Of a DNA stretch of 24,358 nt, positions 6,727 to 21,962 are shown piece by piece. The DNA is from Nitrospirota bacterium (lineage in GTDB: Bacteria; Nitrospirota; Thermodesulfovibrionia; Thermodesulfovibrionales; Dissulfurispiraceae), in the NCBI GenBank assembly GCA_040754455.1, contig JBFMCP010000040.1:1-24358 (forward strand), in the 5' to 3' direction. The stretch's first letter is position 1. Each line of letters begins with the position of its first letter. Both the position numbers and the translations under genes were made by a program. The notes under the pieces were generated by a model that worked only from the letters and a program-made list of their open reading frames with translations, was not told the DNA's origin and ran no database searches.

Positions 6727-8739
6727 TTACTTGGTGAGCACTGTGTCGATTACCTCGTCCAGATAATCGGTGAAGTGAATGGTCATTCCTTTTTTCATCT
6801 CCCCGGTCAATTCCTCGAGGTCGGGTCTGTTCCTGGAAGGCAGGATGACGGCCTTTATCCCTGCGCGCCGGGCTGCCGCGAGCTTTTCCCGTATGCCGCT
6901 GACCTGAAGCACTCTTCCGGTAAGGGTTATCTCGCCGGTCATGGCGACGTCCCTGCGGGCGGGCCTGTTGGTGAGGAGTGAAATGAGCGCCATGGCAATG
7001 GTAATCCCTGCGGAAGGGCCGTCCTTCTGGATAGTGCCGGACGGGACATGAATATGGATATCGTGGTGCTCAAAGAAGTCTTCAGGGATGCCGAACACGG
7101 CAGCATTGCTCCGCACATAGCTGAGGGCGGCCTGTGCGGACTCCCTCATCACTTCACCGAGCGAGCCGGTCAGAATAAGCTCTTTTCTGCCTTTCATCCG
7201 CGCCGCCTCGACAAAGATGATATCTCCTCCGGTCTCGGTTAGCACCAGCCCGGTCGTAACGCCGACCCGGTCATGTTCTCCAGCAGTTTCGTAATGGTAG
7301 AGGGGACGCCCCAGATAGTGCTCAATGAGAGCAGGGGTGATGACCAGAGGTTTTGACTGCCCGCTGCTGGCAGCGCGGTCCTGAACGATCTCCTTTGCCG
7401 TCTTTCTGAAGATGGCGGCGATCTTTCGCTCGAGATTTCTGGTTCCCGACTCATGCGTATACTCCTGAATTATTTTGTAGAGCACCTCCTCGGTAAATTC
7501 AGGAGCATAACCGCATAATCCCTTATCGTTGAGCTGCCGCGGGATAATGAACTGCGAGGCTATGTGCACCTTCTCTTCAGGGGTATAGCCGCTGAATTCG
7601 ATCACCTCCATGCGATCCCTGAGCGGGGCCGGTATGCTCTCGACCGTGTTTGAAGTGAGAATGAACATCACCTCCGAGAGGTCGAAGGGAACGTCGAGAT
7701 AGTGATCGACAAAGCTGCGGTTCTGTTCGGGGTCCAGCACCTCCAGCAGCGCCGACGCCGGGTCTCCCTTGAAGTCATGGCCTATCTTGTCCAGCTCATC
7801 AAGCATGATGACAGGGTTGGAGGACCCCACGCGGCGTATTTCTTCGATAATCCTTCCGGGCTTTGCGCCTACATAGGTGCGGCGGTGCCCCCGTATCTCC
7901 GCCTCGTCCCTCATCCCGCCCAGCGCGATCCGTACGAAATGCCTCCCCAGGGCTTTTGCAACGGTTCTCCCCATTGAGGTCTTTCCTGTCCCCGGCGGGC
8001 CGGCAAAACAGAGTACCGAGCTGTGTGTTGTGCTCATCATCACGCGGTTCTCAAGCGCCTGTTTGACGGCGGCACGTACCTCCTCGAGCTTGAAAGGCTT
8101 TGCGATATACGAGAAGGCGCCCTTTTTCATAGCTTCCACTGCAGAGGGAACGGTGGCATATCCGGTGATCATGATCACCCGGGTGTCCGGCTGTTGTGCG
8201 CGAATGTTCTCAAGGACCTCCATGCCGTCCACGCCGGGCATCTTGAGGTCGGTGATAATGACATCAAAGCGGGTGGTGCGAAGCTTGTTCAAGGCATCGG
8301 TGCCATCCGTTGCGACCGCCACCTCGTAGTTTTCCCGAGCCAGTATATGGGTCAGGTTCTTTCTCGCGATCTCTTCATCGTCGACAACAAGAATACGCGG
8401 CGGCGTATCCAGTTTGAGGATTTTTACGGCGAGATGTTCGAGAATCCTCTCTTTAACGCTCGTGAGGCCGTAGTGACTCTCCGTCATTATATTCTCTGCG
8501 CGCCTGAGATCGAGGTTGTCCTCGGTTTTCTTGTTCCACGGCAAAGTAACAAGGTAATCGATATACGTAAAGCCGATCGTGTACTCTGCGGTTGAGGGGC
8601 TGATTTTAGAGAGGGTCTCGAGTTCCTGAAGGGCAATGCTCTCTACGGAGGAAGGCATCCGTACCGCGATGATCTTCTGCCTGAGCTCCTCCAGGGCCTC
8701 ATCGTGTAGCTCTCCCTCTGATTTTTTGAAGAATCCCAT
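6727..8739 (-). CDS. lon: Lon (S16) ATP-dependent protease with an inserted receiver domain and no N-terminal domain
   Basis: [21 protein letters not shown] insert at about aa 115-230, Walker [26 protein letters not shown], catalytic KDGPSAG and IREK. Confidence 0.92.
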
Positions 8740-12072: not shown

Positions 12073-13359
12073 TCAGTTCCTCTTCAGAACGAGGACGTGC
12101 ACAGAACAGGAGATGCAGGGATCGTAGCTCCTGATGATCTTTTCACACTCCCTCTTCAGGTAGTCGGCAGGCTTCTCAAGGTTTTTCTGAAGGAAGGCAT
12201 GAATATCCTTCTCCATGTGCCCGAGGTTCTGGGACGTAGGCGGAATGAGGGTGCACGCCTTGACGTATCCGTTATCATCGAGCTCATAGCGGTGGATGAG
12301 CATGCCGCGCGGCGCTTCGGTGATCCACGTTGCGGTGCCGCTCCGCGGACTGTATTCGACAAAGGCCTTTGCAGGCTCTTCATAGTCCCTGATGAGGCGG
12401 ACCGCTTCATGAAACGCGAAAGACAGCTCGGCAGACCGTGCGATAATGCCCATCCCGGTGTTATGCAGGGGAACGAGAGTTCCGGTTTCCCTGATGATGC
12501 TCTTCACCTCAGGAGGCAGCATTTCAAAATTCAGATTGAAACGCGCCAGCGGGCCCACGAGATACGGTGTCATCGTTGTATTGCGCTGTACAGCCGAGTG
12601 GAGCGCTGTTGATCGCTCGACCTGATGTTCGCGGAGTGCGCCAAAAAACTCTTCCATGGTCATGTCCAGCCCTCTGTTCGACACCACCCGACCTTCGTTC
12701 ATGGGATACTCTTCGGGGTGTCTGAGGGAGACGTATTCCATATCCCGCTCGATACCGCCGAAGGGGAGCCCCGCCGCCCACCTGATGGCATGCAGAGATT
12801 CCTCATAAGCCTTTTCAAGGTCGTCAATGAGTGCGGTCAGGCTTTTCTTTTTCGGAACGCCGAAGAACCCGCCTGTCCGTACCGAAACAGGATGGATCGG
12901 TCTCCCTCCTAGTACGCTCAGAAGATCGTTGCCGATCTTTTTAAAATGAAGCCCCTTCTTTGCAAGCGGCAGGTATTCACTTTTCGTCCATGCGCTCTCT
13001 GCGCCGTAGAAATCGGGCCCCTGAAGCAGGTAGATGTGCAGCGCATGGCTTTCGATCCACTCGCCGGTATAGAAGAGCCTGCGGAGGAGGCGTATCTGCG
13101 GGTCCACATCCACGCCGAATATTTTTTCTACTGCGTGAGCGGAGCTCATCTGGTACGCCACCGGACAGATGCCGCATATCCGTGCGGTAAAATCGATGAT
13201 ATCCTGGTGTGGCCTCCCCCGGAGAAAGGATTCGAAAAAACGGGGCGACTCGAAGATCGAGACATTGAGCCTGCTGATCCCGCCATCTTTTATTTCGACG
13301 AGGAGGCCGCCTTCTCCCTCAACCCGTGACAGATAATCGATTCTTATTCTCTTTTTCAT
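12073..13359 (-). CDS. Group 3b [NiFe] hydrogenase (sulfhydrogenase) large/alpha subunit
   Basis: RVEGEG, L1 RICGICP, EAPRG and L2 DPCISCSVH. Confidence 0.93.
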   Translation of the reverse strand: MKKRIRIDYLSRVEGEGGLLVEIKDGGISRLNVSIFESPRFFESFLRGRPHQDIIDFTARICGICPVAYQMSSAHAVEKIFGVDVDPQIRLLRRLFYTGEWIESHALHIYLLQGPDFYGAESAWTKSEYLPLAKKGLHFKKIGNDLLSVLGGRPIHPVSVRTGGFFGVPKKKSLTALIDDLEKAYEESLHAIRWAAGLPFGGIERDMEYVSLRHPEEYPMNEGRVVSNRGLDMTMEEFFGALREHQVERSTALHSAVQRNTTMTPYLVGPLARFNLNFEMLPPEVKSIIRETGTLVPLHNTGMGIIARSAELSFAFHEAVRLIRDYEEPAKAFVEYSPRSGTATWITEAPRGMLIHRYELDDNGYVKACTLIPPTSQNLGHMEKDIHAFLQKNLEKPADYLKRECEKIIRSYDPCISCSVHVLVLKRN

Positions 13360-13405
13360 GATGCCTCAGTTGCGATGCACACACGCATCGACCCCTTCAG
13401 ATCCT

Positions 13406-14176
13406 TTATGTAGGGGAAGCGGCTTTGTATTTTTCTTTTCTGTATGCATAGGTATTCATTTTGTCGATCATCTGCATACATTCATTCTGCGAGTAACCGA
13501 ACTGCTTGAAGACAGTGAAAAGCGAATCGATGTTCGCGCCTTCTTTCGGGCCGAAACATCCATAGCAGGGCCGGTCGAGGGAAGGACAGAGCACCCCGCA
13601 TCCGGCTTTGGTGATCGGTCCAAGGCATGGCTCCGATTGTGAAACCAGAATGCAGGGGATTCCCTTTTGCTTGCACTCCATGCACAGGGCGTATGTGGGA
13701 ACGGGCGGTCTCCTTCCCAGCAGAAAAGAGGTGAGCGTTTTCAAAATGGCGCTGTTATCGGGCGGACACCCCCAGAGCTCGTAGTCCACATGCACATGCT
13801 CTGATATGGGATCGGACGTCGCGAGGGTCTCGATGACCTCAGGCGAGGGATAGACGCTCCTTTTATATTCTGCTGCGCTTGCCCAGTTCTTCAACGCCTG
13901 CACCCCGCCGCAGGTCGCACATGCGCCGATGCTGATCATGAACGTTGACCGTTCGCGTACATCGATGATCTCCTCCACCTGCCGGTCAGTAGAGATGGAC
14001 CCCTCTATGACGGCGATGTCGAAGTGACCGGCGAGGGGCTTATCGGATACTTCGCGGAAGTACGCGACATCGAACACCTCCAGGATGCCCAGGAGCTGTT
14101 CCTCCAGGTTCAGGATGCTCAGCTGGCAGCCGTCGCAGGAGGTGAACTTGAAGACCCCGATCCTCGGCTTTTTCAT
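13406..14176 (-). CDS. Group 3b [NiFe] hydrogenase small/delta subunit
   Basis: MKKPRIGVFKFTSCDGCQL, GACAT.GG, GCPP and a C-terminal Cys cluster. The start is set at 14176, 2 nt past the gamma stop, rather than 14368. Confidence 0.9.
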   Translation of the reverse strand: MKKPRIGVFKFTSCDGCQLSILNLEEQLLGILEVFDVAYFREVSDKPLAGHFDIAVIEGSISTDRQVEEIIDVRERSTFMISIGACATCGGVQALKNWASAAEYKRSVYPSPEVIETLATSDPISEHVHVDYELWGCPPDNSAILKTLTSFLLGRRPPVPTYALCMECKQKGIPCILVSQSEPCLGPITKAGCGVLCPSLDRPCYGCFGPKEGANIDSLFTVFKQFGYSQNECMQMIDKMNTYAYRKEKYKAASPT

Positions 14177-14178
14177 CG

Positions 14179-15039
14179 CTACACCTCGCTTACCGCCAAA
14201 AACCGTGCCACGTCGGTCAATCTGAAAACAGGGCCGTCCTTGCAGACGAACGTGGGGCCGAACATGCAGTGCCCGCAGGTTCCTACTCCGCAGTTCATAT
14301 TTCTTTCCATGGAGATGAATATCTTCTCCTCCGGAATACCCATTTCGAGCAGACCTCTGATCATGCACTTCATCATCACTTCAGGCCCGCACATAAAGAC
14401 TACCGTATTAAGGGGATTAAGAGTGATTCTTCCCAGGAGCGATGAGATAAGACCCACCTCCCCTTTCCAGTATTCCTCCGGGTCGGTCTTATCAACGGTG
14501 AGATACACACGAAAGAACTTGCGGTAGCGTGGGAATTCATCTCTGAAGATTACGTCTTTCGGCGTCTTCGCTCCGTACAGCAGGACAGGAGCTTCAGATA
14601 ACTTCGGGCATTGCTGATCGTTCTTTGAAGGATGATTGCTCTTTGCGAGCAGCCGCACCACGGGCCGCAGAGGCGCAATGCCCAGACCTCCGGCGATGAT
14701 GAGCAGGCTCCTGCCGTCAGCCTCCTCCAGAGGCCATCCGCTGCCGAAAGGCCCTCGCAGTCCCACCGTATCTCCGGAGGACAGTTTTGAGAGCGCAGTG
14801 GTGACATTTCCGGCGACTCGTATGGTGTGTGTCAGTTCCCTGTCACCGGGAGAGCTGCTGATGGAAATGGGCGCCTCACCGACACCGGGAAGGTAAATCA
14901 TATTGAACTGCCCTGGTCTGAAGCGGTATTCTCCCACTGTCCTGGTGCTGTTCAATCTTATTGCATACGTTGAGGTGTCTCTTGTCTCTTTCCTGATCCA
15001 TCGTATGGTGGCGGGCTGCGGGATCAGCTTATCGTACAT
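14179..15039 (-). CDS. Group 3b hydrogenase gamma subunit (FAD/NAD(P)-binding, 2Fe-2S; AsrB-like)
   Basis: PGQFNM, GEAPISISS, RGPFG, AGGLGIAP, CGPE and CGVGTCGHC..VCKDGP. Confidence 0.92.
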   Translation of the reverse strand: MYDKLIPQPATIRWIRKETRDTSTYAIRLNSTRTVGEYRFRPGQFNMIYLPGVGEAPISISSSPGDRELTHTIRVAGNVTTALSKLSSGDTVGLRGPFGSGWPLEEADGRSLLIIAGGLGIAPLRPVVRLLAKSNHPSKNDQQCPKLSEAPVLLYGAKTPKDVIFRDEFPRYRKFFRVYLTVDKTDPEEYWKGEVGLISSLLGRITLNPLNTVVFMCGPEVMMKCMIRGLLEMGIPEEKIFISMERNMNCGVGTCGHCMFGPTFVCKDGPVFRLTDVARFLAVSEV

Positions 15040-16135
15040 TTCTCAACGCCTCCAGTTCTTCGGTAATATCTATGCCGGCCGGGCACCATGTGATGCAGCG
15101 TCCGCATCCCACGCATCCCGGCAGGCCGAATTGCGCACCGGTGTATGCCAGTTTGTGCGATATCCAGTGGCGATAGCGGGCGCTTCTCGAATATCTGAAA
15201 TTACCGCCGTGCACACTCGCAAAATTCGTAGAAAAGCAGGAGTCCCATTTGCGCACTCTTACCCCGGAGGTCTCAGGGGGGCTCCTCAGCAGACCATCGA
15301 GATGGGGGATTTCATAAATGGAATTGCAGAAGCAGGTAGGGCAGACTTGCGTACAATTGCCGCATTCGAGGTCCCGTGCTGCTATCTCATTCCAACAGGG
15401 ATGATCAAGGTTTCGATAAATGATATCCGGCAGCTCATGGGCCGCAATGGTTTTCTTCATCATCCGAGCACAACGATCTACGCGCATCCTTTTTCCCTTC
15501 CAGTCCGCATCATTTGGCGCTTCGGCAGACAGACGACCCACCATCTCCTTTCCTCGTTCAGTCGCTGCTTCGAGCAGGAAGGAGTCCTCCAACTCTGTCA
15601 TGCAAATATCGAAATAGTCCTTGACCTCAGGGCCGGTACCCAAGGAGGCGCAGAAGCAGGTATCGCCGGGGAAGAGGCAATTAAACGCTATTATTAAAGA
15701 ATTAGATCGAAGGTGATGATAGGTGCGGTCCTGTACCGGACCTTCCAGAAATACCCTGTCATAGAGCTTCAAGGCGGTGAGATCGCACCCCCTGACTCCC
15801 AGCAGCGCCACGGGACGGTCTCGTGCCGGAAGAGGATCTATTACTATTCCGCTCTTTCCTCTCCTGAATGCGAAAAGCTCTTTTTCCGGTGGATGGAGGA
15901 CCCTTTTGAAGGAGTCTGGACCGGGCGCAAATGAGAAGATGTCTGCATCATCCCCTTTTGAAAGCCTATAAGAGCCGGGGCTTTGATGATCTCTGTATCC
16001 CGCGGGGATATCGTCGAACACAATCTCCCTCATAACGACAACTCCGTCATCAACGGCAGGACCGATGAGCCTGTATGACTCTTGGAGAAGGGAAATAAAA
16101 GCCTCAAAGGAATCTTTTCTTATTTTCTTTTTCAC
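15029..16135 (-). CDS. Group 3b hydrogenase beta subunit (4Fe-4S; AsrA-like)
   Basis: VRGCDL, CFCAS, ECGNCTQVCPTCFC, WDSC and CVGCGRCITWCP; GTG start. Confidence 0.9.
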   Translation of the reverse strand: MKKKIRKDSFEAFISLLQESYRLIGPAVDDGVVVMREIVFDDIPAGYRDHQSPGSYRLSKGDDADIFSFAPGPDSFKRVLHPPEKELFAFRRGKSGIVIDPLPARDRPVALLGVRGCDLTALKLYDRVFLEGPVQDRTYHHLRSNSLIIAFNCLFPGDTCFCASLGTGPEVKDYFDICMTELEDSFLLEAATERGKEMVGRLSAEAPNDADWKGKRMRVDRCARMMKKTIAAHELPDIIYRNLDHPCWNEIAARDLECGNCTQVCPTCFCNSIYEIPHLDGLLRSPPETSGVRVRKWDSCFSTNFASVHGGNFRYSRSARYRHWISHKLAYTGAQFGLPGCVGCGRCITWCPAGIDITEELEALRNVR

Positions 16136-16508: not shown

Positions 16509-16574
16509 GGAATCAAGATCACCGCATTCGTGAGATCTGGCTTTGAGCCAAAGATTCATCAAAAGGAGGACAAC

Positions 16575-18221
16575 ATGTTTTGTTATCAGTGTGAACAGGC
16601 TGCAAGGGGAACCGGATGTTCGGCAGTCAGCGTCTGCGGCAAGGACCCTGATGTGGCGGCGCTCCAGGACCTTCTGGTCTATGCGCTCCAGGGGCTTGCC
16701 CTTGTTGCGCATGAGGGAAGGAAGGTCGGCGTGAGCGACAAGGGAGTGAACGAATTTACGGTCAAAGGACTCTTCTCGACGCTCACCAACGTCAACTTCG
16801 ACGCAGCCCGCTTTGTCGGGCTCATCAATAAGACCGTTGAGCTCAGGGAAGGCCTTGCGGCAAAGGTGGAAAAAGCCAGCGGCAACGTTTCCTTCGCAGA
16901 GGGACCCGCAGTGTTTAAGCCTGAAGCATCAGTGGAAGGGCTGTTGCGGCAGGCAGAGAGGGCAGGGCTGAAATCCGATCCCTCTATCGACCCCGATATC
17001 CTTTCGCTCCAGCACACGACGCTGTTCGGCGTGAAAGGTATCTCCGCCTATGTCGACCACGCGCAGATACTGGGCAAGAGCGATGACGCGGTCTATGCCT
17101 ATATCCACGAGGCCCTCGCATCGATGACCAGAAGAGACCTCGGCCTCAATGATTGGGTGGGCATTGCCCTGAAGTGCGGCGAGACCAACCTCAAGGCAAT
17201 GGAACTGCTCGATGCGGCACATACCGAGCGGTACGGACATCCTGTTCCGACCAAGGTCCCTCTCGGCGCAAAGAAGGGAAAGGCACTCCTCGTTTCGGGC
17301 CACGATCTTATGGACCTTGAAGAGATACTCAAGCAGAGCGAGGGCAAGGGCATATATGTCTACACTCACGGCGAGATGCTCCCGACCCATGCCTATCCTC
17401 AGTTGAAAAAATATCCACACTTCTACGGCCATTACGGCACGGCATGGCAAAATCAGCATAAGGAATTCGCCACGTTCCCGGGTGCCATTGTGATGACGAC
17501 CAACTGTCTGCAGGAGCCGGAGCAGTCATATAAAGACAACATCTTCACTACCGGTCTTGTCGGCTGGCCCGGCGTGACGCATATCGTCGACAAGAACTTT
17601 GCGCCGGCGATCGAGCGGGCGCTCGCCCTTCCCGGGTTCACTGAAGACGTTCCGGGCAAGACTGTGATGACGGGCTTTGCGAGGAATGCGGTGATGGGCG
17701 TTGCCGACAAGGTTATCGAGGCGGTCAAGAATAAACATATCCGCCATTTCTTCCTGGTCGCGGGGTGCGACGGATCGAAGCCGGGGAGGAACTACTACAC
17801 CGAATTTGTCGAAAAAGTGCCGAAAGATTGCGTGGTGCTGACCCTGGCCTGCGGCAAGTTCCGCTTCTTCGACAAAGAGATGGGCGATATCGGCGGCATA
17901 CCGAGACTGCTCGATATCGGCCAGTGCAACGATGCTTACTCGGCCATCCAGATTGCGGTAGCGCTCTCAAAGGCCTTCGGTGTCGGCGTCAACAACCTGC
18001 CGCTCTCGCTGGTGCTCTCATGGTATGAGCAGAAGGCGGTGGCGATCCTGCTGACGCTCCTGTACCTAGGCATCAAGAACATCCGCATCGGTCCTTCGCT
18101 TCCGGCGTTCATCACCCCGAACGTTCTGAACGTGCTGGTGCAGAATTACAATATCATGCCTATCACCACGCCTGATAACGATCTCAAGGCGATACTGGGA
18201 GAGAGCGTCAAAGCAGCGTAA
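16575..18221 (+). CDS. hcp: Hybrid cluster protein (hydroxylamine/NO reductase), class I
   Basis: MFCYQCEQ with C-x2-C-x8-C-x5-C, SGHDL, THGEMLP, GCDG, GQCND and SWYEQKA; AAGGAGG RBS before the ATG at 16575. Confidence 0.96.
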   Translation: MFCYQCEQAARGTGCSAVSVCGKDPDVAALQDLLVYALQGLALVAHEGRKVGVSDKGVNEFTVKGLFSTLTNVNFDAARFVGLINKTVELREGLAAKVEKASGNVSFAEGPAVFKPEASVEGLLRQAERAGLKSDPSIDPDILSLQHTTLFGVKGISAYVDHAQILGKSDDAVYAYIHEALASMTRRDLGLNDWVGIALKCGETNLKAMELLDAAHTERYGHPVPTKVPLGAKKGKALLVSGHDLMDLEEILKQSEGKGIYVYTHGEMLPTHAYPQLKKYPHFYGHYGTAWQNQHKEFATFPGAIVMTTNCLQEPEQSYKDNIFTTGLVGWPGVTHIVDKNFAPAIERALALPGFTEDVPGKTVMTGFARNAVMGVADKVIEAVKNKHIRHFFLVAGCDGSKPGRNYYTEFVEKVPKDCVVLTLACGKFRFFDKEMGDIGGIPRLLDIGQCNDAYSAIQIAVALSKAFGVGVNNLPLSLVLSWYEQKAVAILLTLLYLGIKNIRIGPSLPAFITPNVLNVLVQNYNIMPITTPDNDLKAILGESVKAA

Positions 18222-18256
18222 CTGATATTTCTGGAAATAAAAGGAAGTAACGAGGC

Positions 18257-18288
18257 AGGAGAGGGGAGGCGACTCCCCTCTCCTTTTT
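18257..18288 (+). terminator. Rho-independent terminator after hcp
   Basis: AGGAGAGGGGAG-GCGA-CTCCCCTCTCCT perfect 12-bp stem, GNRA loop and T-run. Confidence 0.85.
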
Positions 18289-18290
18289 GT

Positions 18291-18935
18291 TTATTTCTTT
18301 TTATTCTTCTTCGCCTGAGCTTTCTTTTCCGCCTGTTTTTGCTCCTGCTCTTTTGCCTGTTCCTGCTCTTTCTCTTTCGCCGCCTTGTACGCCATCATGC
18401 CGCCTCTCAGATACTTCACATTTGTGTAGCCGAGCATAGAGAGGTACATCTGCCCTGTTGCAGAGCGCGGCCCCGCGGCGCAATAGACGACGATCTCGGT
18501 GATCTTCAGTGCAGGCAGCTTGTCGAGGTTTTTCCGCATTTCTTCAAGAGGTATGTTGATGGCGTCAGGGATGTGCTCTTCGTTGTAGTCCTTTGCCCCC
18601 CGCAGGTCAATGGTGACGAGGCCGGGATTGTCCCTCTTTCTCGATGTGTATTCTTCATAGGTTATCGCATTGTAGGAGCCGGTGAGGGTCATCAGAAAGC
18701 GGGTCGCTGCATCGGCCTGGTACGCGTCGTTATAGGCGCGCCAGAGTTTATTGTTGCCCGGCTCAATGGTGATCGCCTTGCGGAGCACCTTCGTGGCGTC
18801 ACTGAACTCTCCTTTGTTATAGAGGTCGATTCCCTGCTTCAGGAGATCCTGCGCTGTCTCTGCAGAGACAGCAGGCGTCTGCGTCAACAGGAACAGGGCA
18901 AAGAGCACGCATGCAGAGAGAATTATTTTCTTCAT
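18291..18935 (-). CDS. Exported TPR + rhodanese (sulfurtransferase) domain protein
   Basis: Signal peptide (VSA); TPR-like GIDLYNKGEFSDA...AITIEP; IDLR...HIPDAINIP; active loop YCAAGPRS; LRGGM; Lys/Glu/Gln-rich tail. Confidence 0.88.
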   Translation of the reverse strand: MKKIILSACVLFALFLLTQTPAVSAETAQDLLKQGIDLYNKGEFSDATKVLRKAITIEPGNNKLWRAYNDAYQADAATRFLMTLTGSYNAITYEEYTSRKRDNPGLVTIDLRGAKDYNEEHIPDAINIPLEEMRKNLDKLPALKITEIVVYCAAGPRSATGQMYLSMLGYTNVKYLRGGMMAYKAAKEKEQEQAKEQEQKQAEKKAQAKKNKKK

Positions 18936-18937
18936 GG

Positions 18938-20275
18938 CTATTTCCTCCCCGCCTCTCGGCCTGTTTTCTGCGGTATTTTTTCTACGATGACCCTGCTGTT
19001 CGCCTTGAGCTCATTCGGAACGATGTCTTCCTTCCTCAGGAAGAGCGCTGCGTTGCCGTGGCAGGAATCGCAGGACCTGTTCTGCGGTGTGAGTCGCTGC
19101 ACGTTGTGGGGAGCGGCGTATTTCCATGTGGGGACAGTATTGAAGCCGGTCATCATATTCGGTCCGTAGGCAGAAGCGAGGTCAGGTGTTGTCGGCGCAT
19201 GCCGTACTACAACATACTCATAGGGCCGGTCGTTCCGGTAGTTCCTGCCGATCTTGAACGCCATGAAGGAATGGTCGATCTTATAAAAACGGGCTGTAAT
19301 TTTTCCATCTTCCTCCTTGTATTCGAGATGGCAGTTTTTGCAGTTCTTTGCAATGACAGAATGGCAGACATTGCATTGGAGCCGGTCGCCATGGATGGCG
19401 TGCTGCTCCACTGTTGTGTTCCCTTGCAGCACATCCTTATGGCACTCTTTGCAGTCAGGGAGGAGCGGATTATCATAGCGGTCCCGGAGCGGTGTGCCGG
19501 TCCCATGGAGAGCATTCTCCCTCTTATGGCAGCCGAGGCAGACCATGCCGGAAAGGCGGACATGCGTGTCGGCAGGAGCGCCGGGGTTTTGACCGTAAAA
19601 TTCGTCACCGGCGCGGGCGCTGTGGCAAATGCCACAGGTCATATCCTCGGGAGGAGTCTTTAAAAAGGTATGGCCTGCAAGCAGGCCGCCTTTTGCCGGA
19701 CCTTTCGGTCTGTTGACGTGGCAGTCGCCGCAGGAGGCGTGGCAAGAGTAGCAGTGGCCTTTGAAGATGCCCCCCAGTTCTTTGGGGCCGTCCCCTGTTT
19801 TATCGGGATTCCAGCGCTCTTTTAGGGGCTGCTTCATTCCCGAGGCGGTCATATGCAGGCTCGTTTTGAATCTGTTGACGATATCGGCATGGCACTGGGC
19901 GCAGACGTCCGGTTTTTCATCAGGGCTCCTGATGATGCCTTCATGCGCCTTTTTCATGTCCGTTGCCTTGCCGTCACCGTTGTGGCAGAACGTACAGCCC
20001 TGCGCATTGTGCGTCGAATTCAGAAATTCCTTGCTGCTGACGTAGACGCGCTCAAAAGGCTCCAACGGAGCCACTGCTTTAGCTCACCCTTCGCCTTCCG
20101 AAAGTTTTTTTGGCGGTTCGGGCAGCGCAGGCGCAAGAGATTTCAATTTTTCGAGATTCGTGTGGCAGTCGGCACATGAGTCCGCCTTCGCCTGCTGCAA
20201 GCAGAGCAGAGAGGACAAAAACAGGAGCACAGCGGCAGTCACTAAATTGAGGCGACAACAGTTCCGTCTTTTCAT
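18938..20275 (-). CDS. Exported 11-heme cytochrome c, predicted selenoprotein (UGA=Sec at codon 64)
   Basis: ORF 20275-20084 (signal peptide + CADCH) and ORF 20074-18938 (10 CxxCH) are in the same frame, joined by TGA-GCT-AAA-GCA. A SECIS-like hairpin follows. The downstream part has no RBS or signal peptide. Confidence 0.8.
20050..20083 (-). promoter_or_regulatory. Putative bacterial SECIS element
   Basis: mRNA UGA-GCUAAAGCAGU-GGCUCC-GUU-GGAGCC-UUUUGAGC has a perfect 6-bp upper stem starting 11 nt after the UGA, an apical GU, and a possible lower stem GCU.AAAG/UUUU.AGC. Confidence 0.7.
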
Positions 20276-20353
20276 ACCTTACCCTCCATAGTGGATTCCC
20301 CCTTTGCGAGACATGTGTCTACTAATTATAATTAATAGATAATATGTTTATTA

Positions 20354-20382
20354 AAGTTAGCAACAATGAAAGCAAATGTCAA
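20354..20382 (-). promoter_or_regulatory. Sigma70-type promoter for the cytochrome-rhodanese operon
   Basis: Minus strand TTGACA-17 nt-TAACTT with TG extended -10. Confidence 0.55.
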
Positions 20383-20528
20383 TACAAAGGTAGATCTCTC
20401 CCCTGGAGGTATTTACTTGCACCCGGAGGAGAAAAATATATAATTTATATAAGTACAAACATCTTCGGACAGCTTTTGCCGACAACGGTAGAAGAAATAT
20501 CAAAGAGTAAGTTCTTGAAAGGAGCAGC

Positions 20529-21962
20529 ATGAGAAGAAGCATTGCTATAAAGCTTTTTATCGCAGGAATCATTCTGGTGAGCATAGGGGTTTTCATCGGG
20601 TCACACCTCGGTGGAGAGAAAGCACAGAACGGATCCCAGTTCATCGGGTTTCCGCAGTCCTTTGCCGATGTGTCGGCGAGGGTCACCCCTGCAGTGGTGA
20701 ATATCAGCACGACGACGACGGTAAGGGTGCCGGGTAATCCCTTCAAGCACTTTTTCGGCCCTGACGATGAAGGCCCTTTCGGTGATTTCTTCAGGCGCTT
20801 TTACGGTGATATCCCTGATCGGGAGCTGAAGCAGCAGAGTCTCGGGTCAGGTTTTGTGATCGACAAAGAGGGATATATCGTAACCAATAACCATGTTGTG
20901 GAGGCCGCCGACGAGATCAAGGTGAGGTTTGCCGACGGCAAGGAATTCAAGGCAAAGGTCGTCGGAAGAGATCCGAAGACCGATCTCGCCCTCATAAAGA
21001 TATCCTCGCTCTTCAAGGATCTCCCTGTCCTTACCCTCGGTGACCCCGATAAAATGAGAGTCGGTGATTGGGTGCTTGCTATCGGCAACCCCTTCGGCCT
21101 GGAGCATACGGTGACCCAGGGCATTATCAGTGCTACAGGAAGGGTGATCGGGGCCGGGCAGTACGATAATTTCATCCAGACTGATGCGCCGATCAATCCG
21201 GGTAACAGCGGAGGCCCGCTCGTCAACCTGAAAGGAGAGGTGATCGGTATCAACACTGCTATTGTCGCCACAGGGCAGGGCATCGGCTTTGCCATCCCGA
21301 GCAGCATGGCGAAATCGGTCATTGCCCAACTCAGGGAGAAAGGGAAGGTCGTGCGCGGATGGATCGGTGTTGCAGTACAGAACATAACGCCCGAAATTGC
21401 GCAAACCCTCGGGCTGAAAGACACCAGGGGTGCACTTATCGGAGATGTGGTTCCCGAGGGACCGGCACATAAAGCCGGAATCAAGCCGGGAGATGTCATC
21501 GTAGCATTCAATGGAAAGGACATAAAAAATATGAACGACCTTTCGCGGATTGTTGCCGAGACCACTGTGGGAAAGACGGTGCCGGTGACGATTATCAGAG
21601 ATGGGAAGAAAATGGATGTCTCGCTGACCGTTTCTGAATTGAAAGAGGGGAGAATGGCATTCCGCGCGCCCGGCCAGACGAGCAATCCGGGCATCGCTGT
21701 CAGCACGATAACGCCCCATCTTGCTCAGCAGCTCGGGCTTCGGGACAGGTCCGGAGTCGTAGTGGTTGATGTCGCGCCCGGCAGTCCTGCCGATGACGCC
21801 GGCATTGAGGTGGGGGACATCATAAAAGAGGTGAACCGTCAGTCAGTCAAGAGCAGGGAAGAGTACAGGAATGCCCTGTCCAGATTAAAACCGGGCAGTC
21901 CCGTGCTCTTTCTGATCAAGCGGGGAGCGCAGTCATTCTATATCTCTCTCAGGGCGTCATGA
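20529..21962 (+). CDS. degP: Periplasmic serine endoprotease DegP/DegQ (Do) with two PDZ domains
   Basis: TNNHVV, DLAL, GNPFGL, IQTDAPINPGNSGG and two PDZ repeats. Confidence 0.93.
   Translation: MRRSIAIKLFIAGIILVSIGVFIGSHLGGEKAQNGSQFIGFPQSFADVSARVTPAVVNISTTTTVRVPGNPFKHFFGPDDEGPFGDFFRRFYGDIPDRELKQQSLGSGFVIDKEGYIVTNNHVVEAADEIKVRFADGKEFKAKVVGRDPKTDLALIKISSLFKDLPVLTLGDPDKMRVGDWVLAIGNPFGLEHTVTQGIISATGRVIGAGQYDNFIQTDAPINPGNSGGPLVNLKGEVIGINTAIVATGQGIGFAIPSSMAKSVIAQLREKGKVVRGWIGVAVQNITPEIAQTLGLKDTRGALIGDVVPEGPAHKAGIKPGDVIVAFNGKDIKNMNDLSRIVAETTVGKTVPVTIIRDGKKMDVSLTVSELKEGRMAFRAPGQTSNPGIAVSTITPHLAQQLGLRDRSGVVVVDVAPGSPADDAGIEVGDIIKEVNRQSVKSREEYRNALSRLKPGSPVLFLIKRGAQSFYISLRAS

Follow-up and report, generated by a model that had tools for sequence, protein, structure and literature searches.

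An in-frame UGA almost certainly encodes selenocysteine in an eleven-heme c-type cytochrome of a widespread, multi-phylum family

In its accessible part, a 2026 table of 119 prokaryotic selenoprotein families contains three with heme, namely ExtKL, GSU2204 and the selenocysteine (Sec)-type octaheme tetrathionate reductases (OTRs) (PMC13188914). MccSep, of the ExtKL type (GSU2937-2936, NF040886), is described in the available text of its report as a polysulfide reductase with five hemes, a His/Cys-ligated heme and Sec in a C-terminal Ig-like domain (DGUP) (PMC13510729). For OTR, the accessible descriptions give heme II as C74-H78 with Lys56 (PMC3769277) and as five-coordinate (PMC9250108), and Sec-type OTRs are reported with U in place of the OTR Cys (NNFU; PMC12013277, supplement 1). 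Dethiobacter alkaliphilus AHT1 is stated to disproportionate sulfur without psr or dsr, and the absence of sat, dsr and psr in this sulfur-reducing species was termed surprising (PMC5609068, accessible text).

Here we describe a cytochrome gene in a 24,358-nt stretch of DNA from a Nitrospirota bacterium (contig JBFMCP010000040.1, assembly GCA_040754455.1; hereafter, the window). Read through a single in-frame TGA (SEGEG-U-AKAV), the gene translates to 445 residues (Table 1) with 11 CxxCH motifs at residues 34, 94, 125, 175, 182, 214, 246, 275, 301, 312 and 402, one of which precedes the TGA and ten of which follow it. Like MccSep/ExtKL, the window protein would be exported, bind multiple c-type hemes and contain a single Sec that follows a Gly, and the two genes have in common an intragenic SECIS, a sulfur context and annotation as two genes; unlike MccSep, it has 11 hemes, Sec near the N terminus and no free Cys. 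Because the mature chain has no Cys outside the heme motifs, Sec64 would be its sole free thiol or selenol. The predicted structure has a helix at residues 6–30, the signal-peptide region, and the ten-heme part downstream of the TGA has no signal peptide, as the initial annotation of this DNA had said. Its further statement that this part lacks a ribosome-binding site was too strong, since a Gly codon and the TGA together make a Shine–Dalgarno-like GGTGA 9 nt before GTG 20074, which accounts for the usual split gene call.

Table 1. Features of the cytochrome and rhodanese genes, in positions of the window.
Feature	Positions	Strand	Remarks
Full cytochrome gene	18938..20275	-	445 residues, predicted Sec64, 11 c-type heme motifs, TAG end
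GGAGG ribosome-binding site	20283..20287	-	7 nt before ATG 20275, read from sequence
Signal peptide, residues 1-31	20183..20275	-	KRR / hydrophobic / AKA, judged by eye
Heme 1 motif CADCH (C34-H38)	20162..20176	-	
In-frame TGA, predicted Sec64	20084..20086	-	Motif G-x-G-U
Putative SECIS hairpin	20058..20072	-	+12 to +26, 6 bp stem, GUU loop, G at +18
Hemes 2-11 (C94-H406)	19058..19996	-	OTR-like core, C-terminal beta region
Heme 4 motif CYSCH (C175-H179)	19739..19753	-	Aligned with catalytic heme II of OTR
Arg221-Glu225 segment	19601..19615	-	Aligned with invariant GGGD-x-x-K loop of OTR
Signal peptide + TPR + rhodanese protein, 214 aa	18291..18935	-	Active-site loop CAAGPR, 2 nt past cytochrome stop
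Terminator-like hairpin	18257..18284	+	Between convergent hcp and rhodanese genes, consensus match only

We compared the window with other members in a set of 88 loci, comprising L014, the best 80 of 599 confirmed metagenome matches and seven genome loci including the window's own; the 80 were ranked by similarity to the read-through query, a ranking that favours Sec-like members, and L015 (a partial-length match at 26%) and L016 (a duplicate of the window) were excluded from the counts. Across these 88 loci the column of the window's TGA reads TGA in 86, TGG in one and TTA in one (TGA in 85 of 87 without the window's own) and never TAA or TAG, and the downstream stops of the 79 closed frames are TAA in 36, TAG in 30 and TGA in 13. 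Gly precedes the column in 87 of the 88, and one in-frame CxxCH lies 25–35 residues upstream of it in 85, the other three loci being truncated by contig ends. The single locus without Gly at −1, L089, has Cys immediately before the TGA (G-E-C-U). L099 (1060-1070; genome G411) is a Sec-type member with a premature TAA within the heme 3 motif, either a pseudogene or an assembly error, and this TAA is counted among the 79 stops. One search returned 1079 clusters at E ≤ 1e-50, and 226 of 380 protein matches examined begin within about 18 residues past the column and 57 include the heme 1 part, in keeping with the initial expectation that standard annotation would split the gene. A single-protein scan of genome contigs gave two loci only; relatives were absent from all 60 other genomes searched and present in 7 of 401 genomes at the phylum level.

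Among 45 uninterrupted homologs (50 candidates minus the query and four mis-anchored sequences), Cys is the commonest residue at the column (20), followed by Trp (6), Tyr, Ala and a gap (3 each), Met, Leu and Val (2 each) and His, Gly, Glu and Pro (1 each). The initial annotation had named TGA or Cys in homologs as the outcome expected of a Sec codon, which is what 86 of the 88 loci and 20 of the 45 homologs have, and Trp or variable residues as evidence to the contrary, which were found in part, in the 25 homologs without Cys, whose heme motifs are mostly retained, and in the TGG and TTA loci. We read the non-Cys columns as losses, because they are scattered over several points of the tree and because L057, the one case checked in DNA, lost the hairpin, Arg221 and the rhodanese as well. 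Two proteins with Trp at the column in an otherwise Sec-type context, P0135 and P0393, may owe this Trp to gene callers translating a TGA. A FastTree tree of 120 rows, unrooted and with long branches, for which we claim neither an order of Sec and Cys events nor a direction, requires 15 changes of the Sec label, and strong branches force at least nine of these. The Cys-type members P0155, P0164, P0143, P0171 and P0317 have CC or CxxC/CxGC near the column.

The candidate SECIS element, GGCTCC-GTT-GGAGCC, begins exactly 11 nt past the TGA. By itself the hairpin is no stabler than shuffled sequence (z of +1.02, +0.02, −1.14 and −0.92 for four stretches), and because folding energy alone is uninformative, its support is comparative. 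Codon usage was analysed in 62 of 82 distinct TGA stretches that lie in the main register, from the best 80 of 599 metagenome matches and eight further loci. At codon U+5 all 62 have CCT or GCT (background 14–15%), U+6 is CCG in 57 and CAG in five, U+7 is TTG in 55 of the 62 versus 13% of Leu elsewhere and U+8 is GAG in all 62 versus 50% elsewhere, and at other conserved Pro and Glu columns of these stretches the codons vary freely. The pair +13/+25 is C-G in 46 of the 62 and G-C in 16, and the swap between P-P-L-E-A/V and A-P-L-E-P follows the RNA, as this pair switches between the two forms. In 82 TGA stretches (78 distinct) from the same loci, 91.5% of stem cells are paired, compared with 40–55% in slid controls. 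The 52 two-sided changes were matched by none of 500 shuffles and the number of pairs having a two-sided change was equalled by 31 of 500, figures that are not probabilities, as the structure was taken from the window and the kin are related. A hairpin rule defined after the data were seen passes 69 of 84 distinct loci, none of 74 true stops and 0.31% of 118,829 genomic TGA triplets. The hairpin and its 11-nt spacing proposed initially are thus borne out by frozen codons and covariation in relatives, and the conservation at synonymous positions is real; the possible lower stem that went with them is not consistently present in folds.

The window's genome (G000) encodes tRNA-Sec, selA, selB and two selD genes (C21:48405-49331 and C37:23899-24813), each with one in-frame TGA, so all of selA, selB, selC and selD, on which the initial proposal depended, were found. 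The second selD has an 11-nt spacer, a 6-bp stem and a GUC loop, the same geometry as the cytochrome hairpin, and the first has a similar stem with the loop G absent. All five other TGA-bearing genomes tested contain selA (G255 lay outside the test). This genome also carries dsrA, an OTR and two true MccSep/ExtKL genes picked up by the NF040886 model, L104 and L105 (C49:11522-12787 and C32:7990-9135), with one TGA each (DG-U-P) and with hairpins less like the selD type.

It is extremely improbable that the TGA is an assembly error, marks a pseudogene or is read as Trp or Gly under a changed genetic code. Contigs of run X2 (possibly the source) and of run X5 (another study) extend across the gene and have no listed difference at the TGA or hairpin, which speaks against the assembly error considered at the outset; 11 differences from the window are listed for the X5 contig and 12 are counted, and runs X6 and X10 do not cover the TGA. 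A changed code would find support in the Trp at the column of 6 of 45 uninterrupted proteins and in the TGG of L032, but tRNA-Sec is the only tRNA in the genome with anticodon TCA, and TGA terminates the gene itself in 13 of the 79 closed frames. We consider it very improbable, too, that the TGA is a real stop separating a 63-residue mono-heme peptide from a re-initiated ten-heme protein. Re-initiation would be served by the GGTGA before GTG 20074, by a start-type codon within 10 codons in 65 of 82 loci (best 80 of 599 plus eight) and by the starts that gene callers chose in the 226 of 380 matches; against it, the stop in the 88 loci is TGA without exception and never out of frame, Cys-type homologs are one chain, the downstream part lacks a signal peptide and the hairpin overlaps the GTG, and of the 82 loci only 34 have a start-type codon at U+4 and three have none until after heme 2 has begun. 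The conserved TGA, the Cys homologs, the covarying hairpin and the Sec machinery uphold the single 445-residue protein with Sec64 put forward initially. The pieces of the window gene almost certainly form one exported eleven-heme protein in which the TGA is almost certainly Sec, and from the sequence evidence we regard insertion at codon 64 of a single exported chain as very nearly assured.

Two AlphaFold2 models of the protein have mean pLDDT of 88.9 and 93.0. The blocks around Sec reach a pLDDT of 86–88 with the fuller, full-length alignment and 63–64 with a shallow one, and on the former value the Sec loop is probably ordered and docked, so the flexible linker of the initial annotation, which mentioned neither the rhodanese partner nor the OTR-like core, is probably wrong. 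The best structural match of both models was the OTR structure 1sp3 (Z 8.6, rmsd 4.4, 263 aligned residues for the first; Z 8.7, rmsd 4.2, 247 aligned for the second), with Z values barely above the range of 7–8 that the comparison tool calls common, and the next match had a Z of 4.5–4.7. Foldseek gave 1sp3 at E 4.5e-3 and TM 0.34 for the first model and did not list it for the second; MccSep structures were not among the fold-search matches, which carries no weight either way. Profile comparison against nine OTR-family sequences gave a probability of 98.3% and E 2e-14. At an identity of 18–19%, hemes 3–9 of the window protein are collinear with OTR hemes I–VII and heme 11 corresponds to VIII by motif order, with heme 4 aligned to the catalytic heme II, and all seven conserved non-motif His residues of OTR have counterparts, five aligned and two by motif order. 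The window protein differs in having three extra hemes (1, 2 and 10), and the OTR residues K59, N64 and C67, invariant in the nine-sequence alignment, fall on a variable position and a gap, so the Lys ligand and the NNFC/NNFU insert have no counterpart in the window family. Sec is found among OTRs as well, at NNFU, and would lie N-terminal to the OTR-like part in the window protein. The OTR set of the window's genome comprises C5:188-1477, C12:35611-36858, C48:13914-15179 and C7:47308-48552, one of which scores above the cut-off as an OTR; the three others are OTR-like paralogs in which the Lys and N-x-x-C are retained, KRGD replaces KHGD and the open frames span 539–921 codons.

For the 11 hemes there are nine near-invariant non-motif His residues (89, 111, 141, 202, 238, 257, 292, 295 and 390), a count up to two short of one invariant His per heme; His359, His174 and Met244 vary, and we did not treat His359 and Met244 as fixed ligands. 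All 73 Sec-type members have Arg221 and Glu225, and Arg or Lys occupies position 221 in 73 of 73 Sec-type, 18 of 20 Cys-type and 12 of 26 other members, counts overstated by the non-independence of kin. The Arg221-Glu225 segment aligns with the GGGD-x-x-K loop, which we take to line the pocket of OTR. Residue 174 was considered as covarying with Sec, Cys or Trp and dropped, being H in 57, A in nine, S in four, N in two and D in one of the 73 Sec-type members.

A rhodanese gene accompanies the cytochrome in 65 of the 88 loci (best 80 of 599 plus eight) and in 33 of the 37 that have at least 1.2 kb on both sides; three of the four well-flanked loci without it are TGA-type. It lies on either side of the cytochrome or is fused to it (P0004, P0146 and P0165, and L098 by inspection). 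A 4Fe-4S protein follows the cytochrome in 21 of the 88 loci, with a TAT signal in one of two scanned, and a b561-type cytochrome is present in several of these 21. Across the gene, L057 is 70–73% identical in nucleotides to the syntenic loci L038 and L046, and every heme motif is intact. In L057, TTA stands in place of the TGA, Val replaces Arg221, the hairpin is missing and the former rhodanese position holds about 760 nt with no long frame; L032, the TGG locus, kept the hairpin, Arg and rhodanese. The comparison indicates that selection ties Sec, Arg221 and a rhodanese together.

Divergent ccmE and ccmF genes lie about 1.3–1.8 kb upstream in 11–12 loci (L024, L037, L040 and nine similar). 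The window also contains, on the reverse strand, a four-gene operon for a group 3b (sulfhydrogenase-like) NiFe hydrogenase (12073-16135), with hcp beside the cytochrome–rhodanese cassette, and this operon is not a recurring neighbour in the 88 loci (best 80 of 599 plus eight). A further reverse-strand gene (6727-8739) encodes 670 residues in which a response-regulator receiver domain is joined to the C-terminal portion of a Lon protease; genes for a histidine kinase and an NtrC-type regulator lie downstream of it. A promoter scan found three matches against 1.9 expected. When window positions 16530-21962 were compared with the same-genus genome G001, hcp and degP lay near the ends of separate contigs and the cytochrome–rhodanese pair had no match; the pair is probably an accessory cassette, an assembly gap in G001 being possible.

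A truncated protein named Dethiobacter alkaliphilus by its source (P0428; 354 residues, 10 hemes, 39.315 kDa) is 40% identical to residues 78–435 of the window protein. In the accessible text of PMC10376724, DealDRAFT_1917 has 10 hemes and no signal peptide, adjoins the rhodanese DealDRAFT_1918 and was reliably upregulated with thiosulfate as acceptor. WP_008516925.1, at 39.315 kDa equal in mass to P0428, rose 2.4-fold with thiosulfate relative to ferrihydrite (q 0.032, 3 peptides), the rhodanese of the neighbouring accession was not significantly changed (q 0.37), SelB was about 2-fold up in the thiosulfate comparison and SelD was detected, and in strain Z-1002 expression of the ortholog was confined to Fe(II) oxidation (PMC10376724). 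DealDRAFT_1917 / OMD50_RS07060 was published as a SirA-like cytochrome or thiosulfate sulfurtransferase (PMC10376724, PMC5609068), and the accessible main text on it contains no word starting with 'selen'. Linking locus tag and accession by mass, neighbour and regulation, we consider it very probably a member of the window cytochrome family. The loci with DNA nearest to P0428, L094 (54%) and L075 (51%), have TGA. Named cultured carriers are D. alkaliphilus, Desulfitibacter alkalitolerans and Gudongella oleilytica.

On balance we favour the reading that the window protein is a Sec-heme sulfane-sulfur reductase served by a rhodanese; more broadly, the family probably reduces sulfur compounds. 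Cytochrome and rhodanese would share one mRNA, SelB would bind the +12/+26 hairpin and insert Sec at codon 64, and the protein would be exported and, given known cytochrome c maturation, fitted with 11 hemes to a holoprotein of about 52.5 kDa. The loop carrying Sec64, predicted to be ordered between heme 1 and the OTR-like core, would deliver the selenolate to a heme lacking a distal His, for which heme 4 is the foremost candidate, a site we assign tentatively, and Arg221 would hold an anionic substrate there. Sec would then do the job of the Cys or Sec of NNFC/NNFU beside the OTR catalytic heme, an element that the window family lacks. The selenolate would attack the sulfane sulfur of polysulfide, thiosulfate, tetrathionate or a persulfide on the partner rhodanese, the heme chain would reduce the Se–S bond and sulfide would be released, an MccSep-like working on an unrelated scaffold in which the second sulfur would come from the rhodanese and not from a heme-ligating Cys. 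In some hosts, electrons of the quinone pool may arrive via the co-encoded TAT 4Fe-4S protein and b-type cytochrome. A bolder version, which we regard as doubtful, is that the undecaheme Sec family is the missing thiosulfate/polysulfide reductase or sulfur-disproportionation enzyme of anaerobes without Psr and Dsr, among them D. alkaliphilus, with Sec binding or gating the heme iron at the OTR catalytic position from another part of the chain and sulfur supplied by a dedicated rhodanese.

Several observations weigh against parts of this scheme. His202 or His174 could fill heme 4, next to which Sec64 would lie. The scaffold persists without Sec or Cys in 25 of 45 uninterrupted homologs, the D. 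alkaliphilus rhodanese showed no significant change on thiosulfate, the expression in strain Z-1002 argues against a role in sulfur metabolism alone, and there is weak similarity to proteins of the ExtN/ExtM/DmsE type (at most 57 bits against cut-offs of 192–800). Some of the same facts would suit Sec64 as a standing His/Sec axial ligand in an electron carrier of very low potential, with the rhodanese or another protein doing the chemistry: the ExtN/ExtM/DmsE matches and the Fe(II)-linked expression (PMC10376724), to which can be added the nine near-invariant His for 11 hemes, the mature chain without a partner Cys, Tyr (3), Met (2) and His (1) among the 45 column residues and the existence of a native Sec-ligated P450 (PMC11703216, accessible text). 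We nonetheless judge a ligand role unlikely, as 19 of the 25 substitutes other than Cys are Trp, Leu, Val, Ala, Gly, Glu, Pro or gaps, and the loss of Arg221 and rhodanese together with Sec in L057 agrees better with a substrate site than with simple electron transfer. The same Sec-heme chemistry could also run in another direction or on another substrate, as sulfide or thiosulfate oxidation (TsdA/SoxA-like, or the oxidative branch of disproportionation) or as selenite or tellurite reduction and detoxification. The disproportionating AHT1 strain without psr or dsr (PMC5609068), the reduction of selenite by MccSep as well (PMC13510729, accessible text) and the place of the weakly matching profiles in the selenite/tellurite ext operon would favour this; since the closest solved fold is a reductase, the reported upregulation came with thiosulfate as acceptor (PMC10376724) and nothing selenium-specific recurs among the neighbours in the loci (best 80 of 599 included), it seems quite improbable, and sulfane-sulfur reduction remains our preferred reading.

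Compared with known families, none of 43 family proteins scanned (in sets of 1, 30 and 12) passes any NCBIfam cut-off for the cytochrome part. Among the 43, NF040886 (cut-off 250 bits) and the GSU2204 selenoprotein profile NF041027 gave no match, and the OTR profile TIGR04315 gave no more than 38.8 bits among the members scanned (cut-off 375), with no match for P0001. Carriers of the decaheme type (ExtN, ExtM, GSU2203 and DmsE) yield weak profile matches through CxxCH spacing, up to 57 bits for ExtN; the ExtN profile NF040967 gave at best 56.4 bits (P0023) against a cut-off of 200 and no match for P0001. Between the window protein and the MccSep proteins of its own genome there is no sequence similarity (best E 0.032), and with the NF040886 result this confirms the initial impression of an architecture different from ExtKL/MccSep. 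The accessible deep-Sep main text makes no mention of cytochromes, the 'cytochrome' matches examined in its supplement are of the MccSep or OTR type, and the peptides PHNIQ and PHNVQ were not found in a search of the accessible deep-Sep material. The family is not described in the literature searched; subscription papers, bioRxiv supplements and large MAG surveys, where it may be listed, were beyond reach.

The window cytochrome is none of the three heme selenoprotein families in the accessible part of the 2026 table (PMC13188914), and by sequence comparison it is almost certainly a real selenoprotein gene, from a widespread multi-phylum family uncatalogued in the table and in NCBIfam as searched. 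Database entries cut at the UGA, 226 of the 380 examined, lose the signal peptide, heme 1 and the likely catalytic residue. The family is a candidate answer to a question already in print, namely how D. alkaliphilus both reduces and disproportionates sulfur without psr or dsr (PMC5609068, accessible text), and it would stand as a fourth heme-containing selenoprotein family beside the three of the 2026 table, on a scaffold unrelated to that of MccSep.
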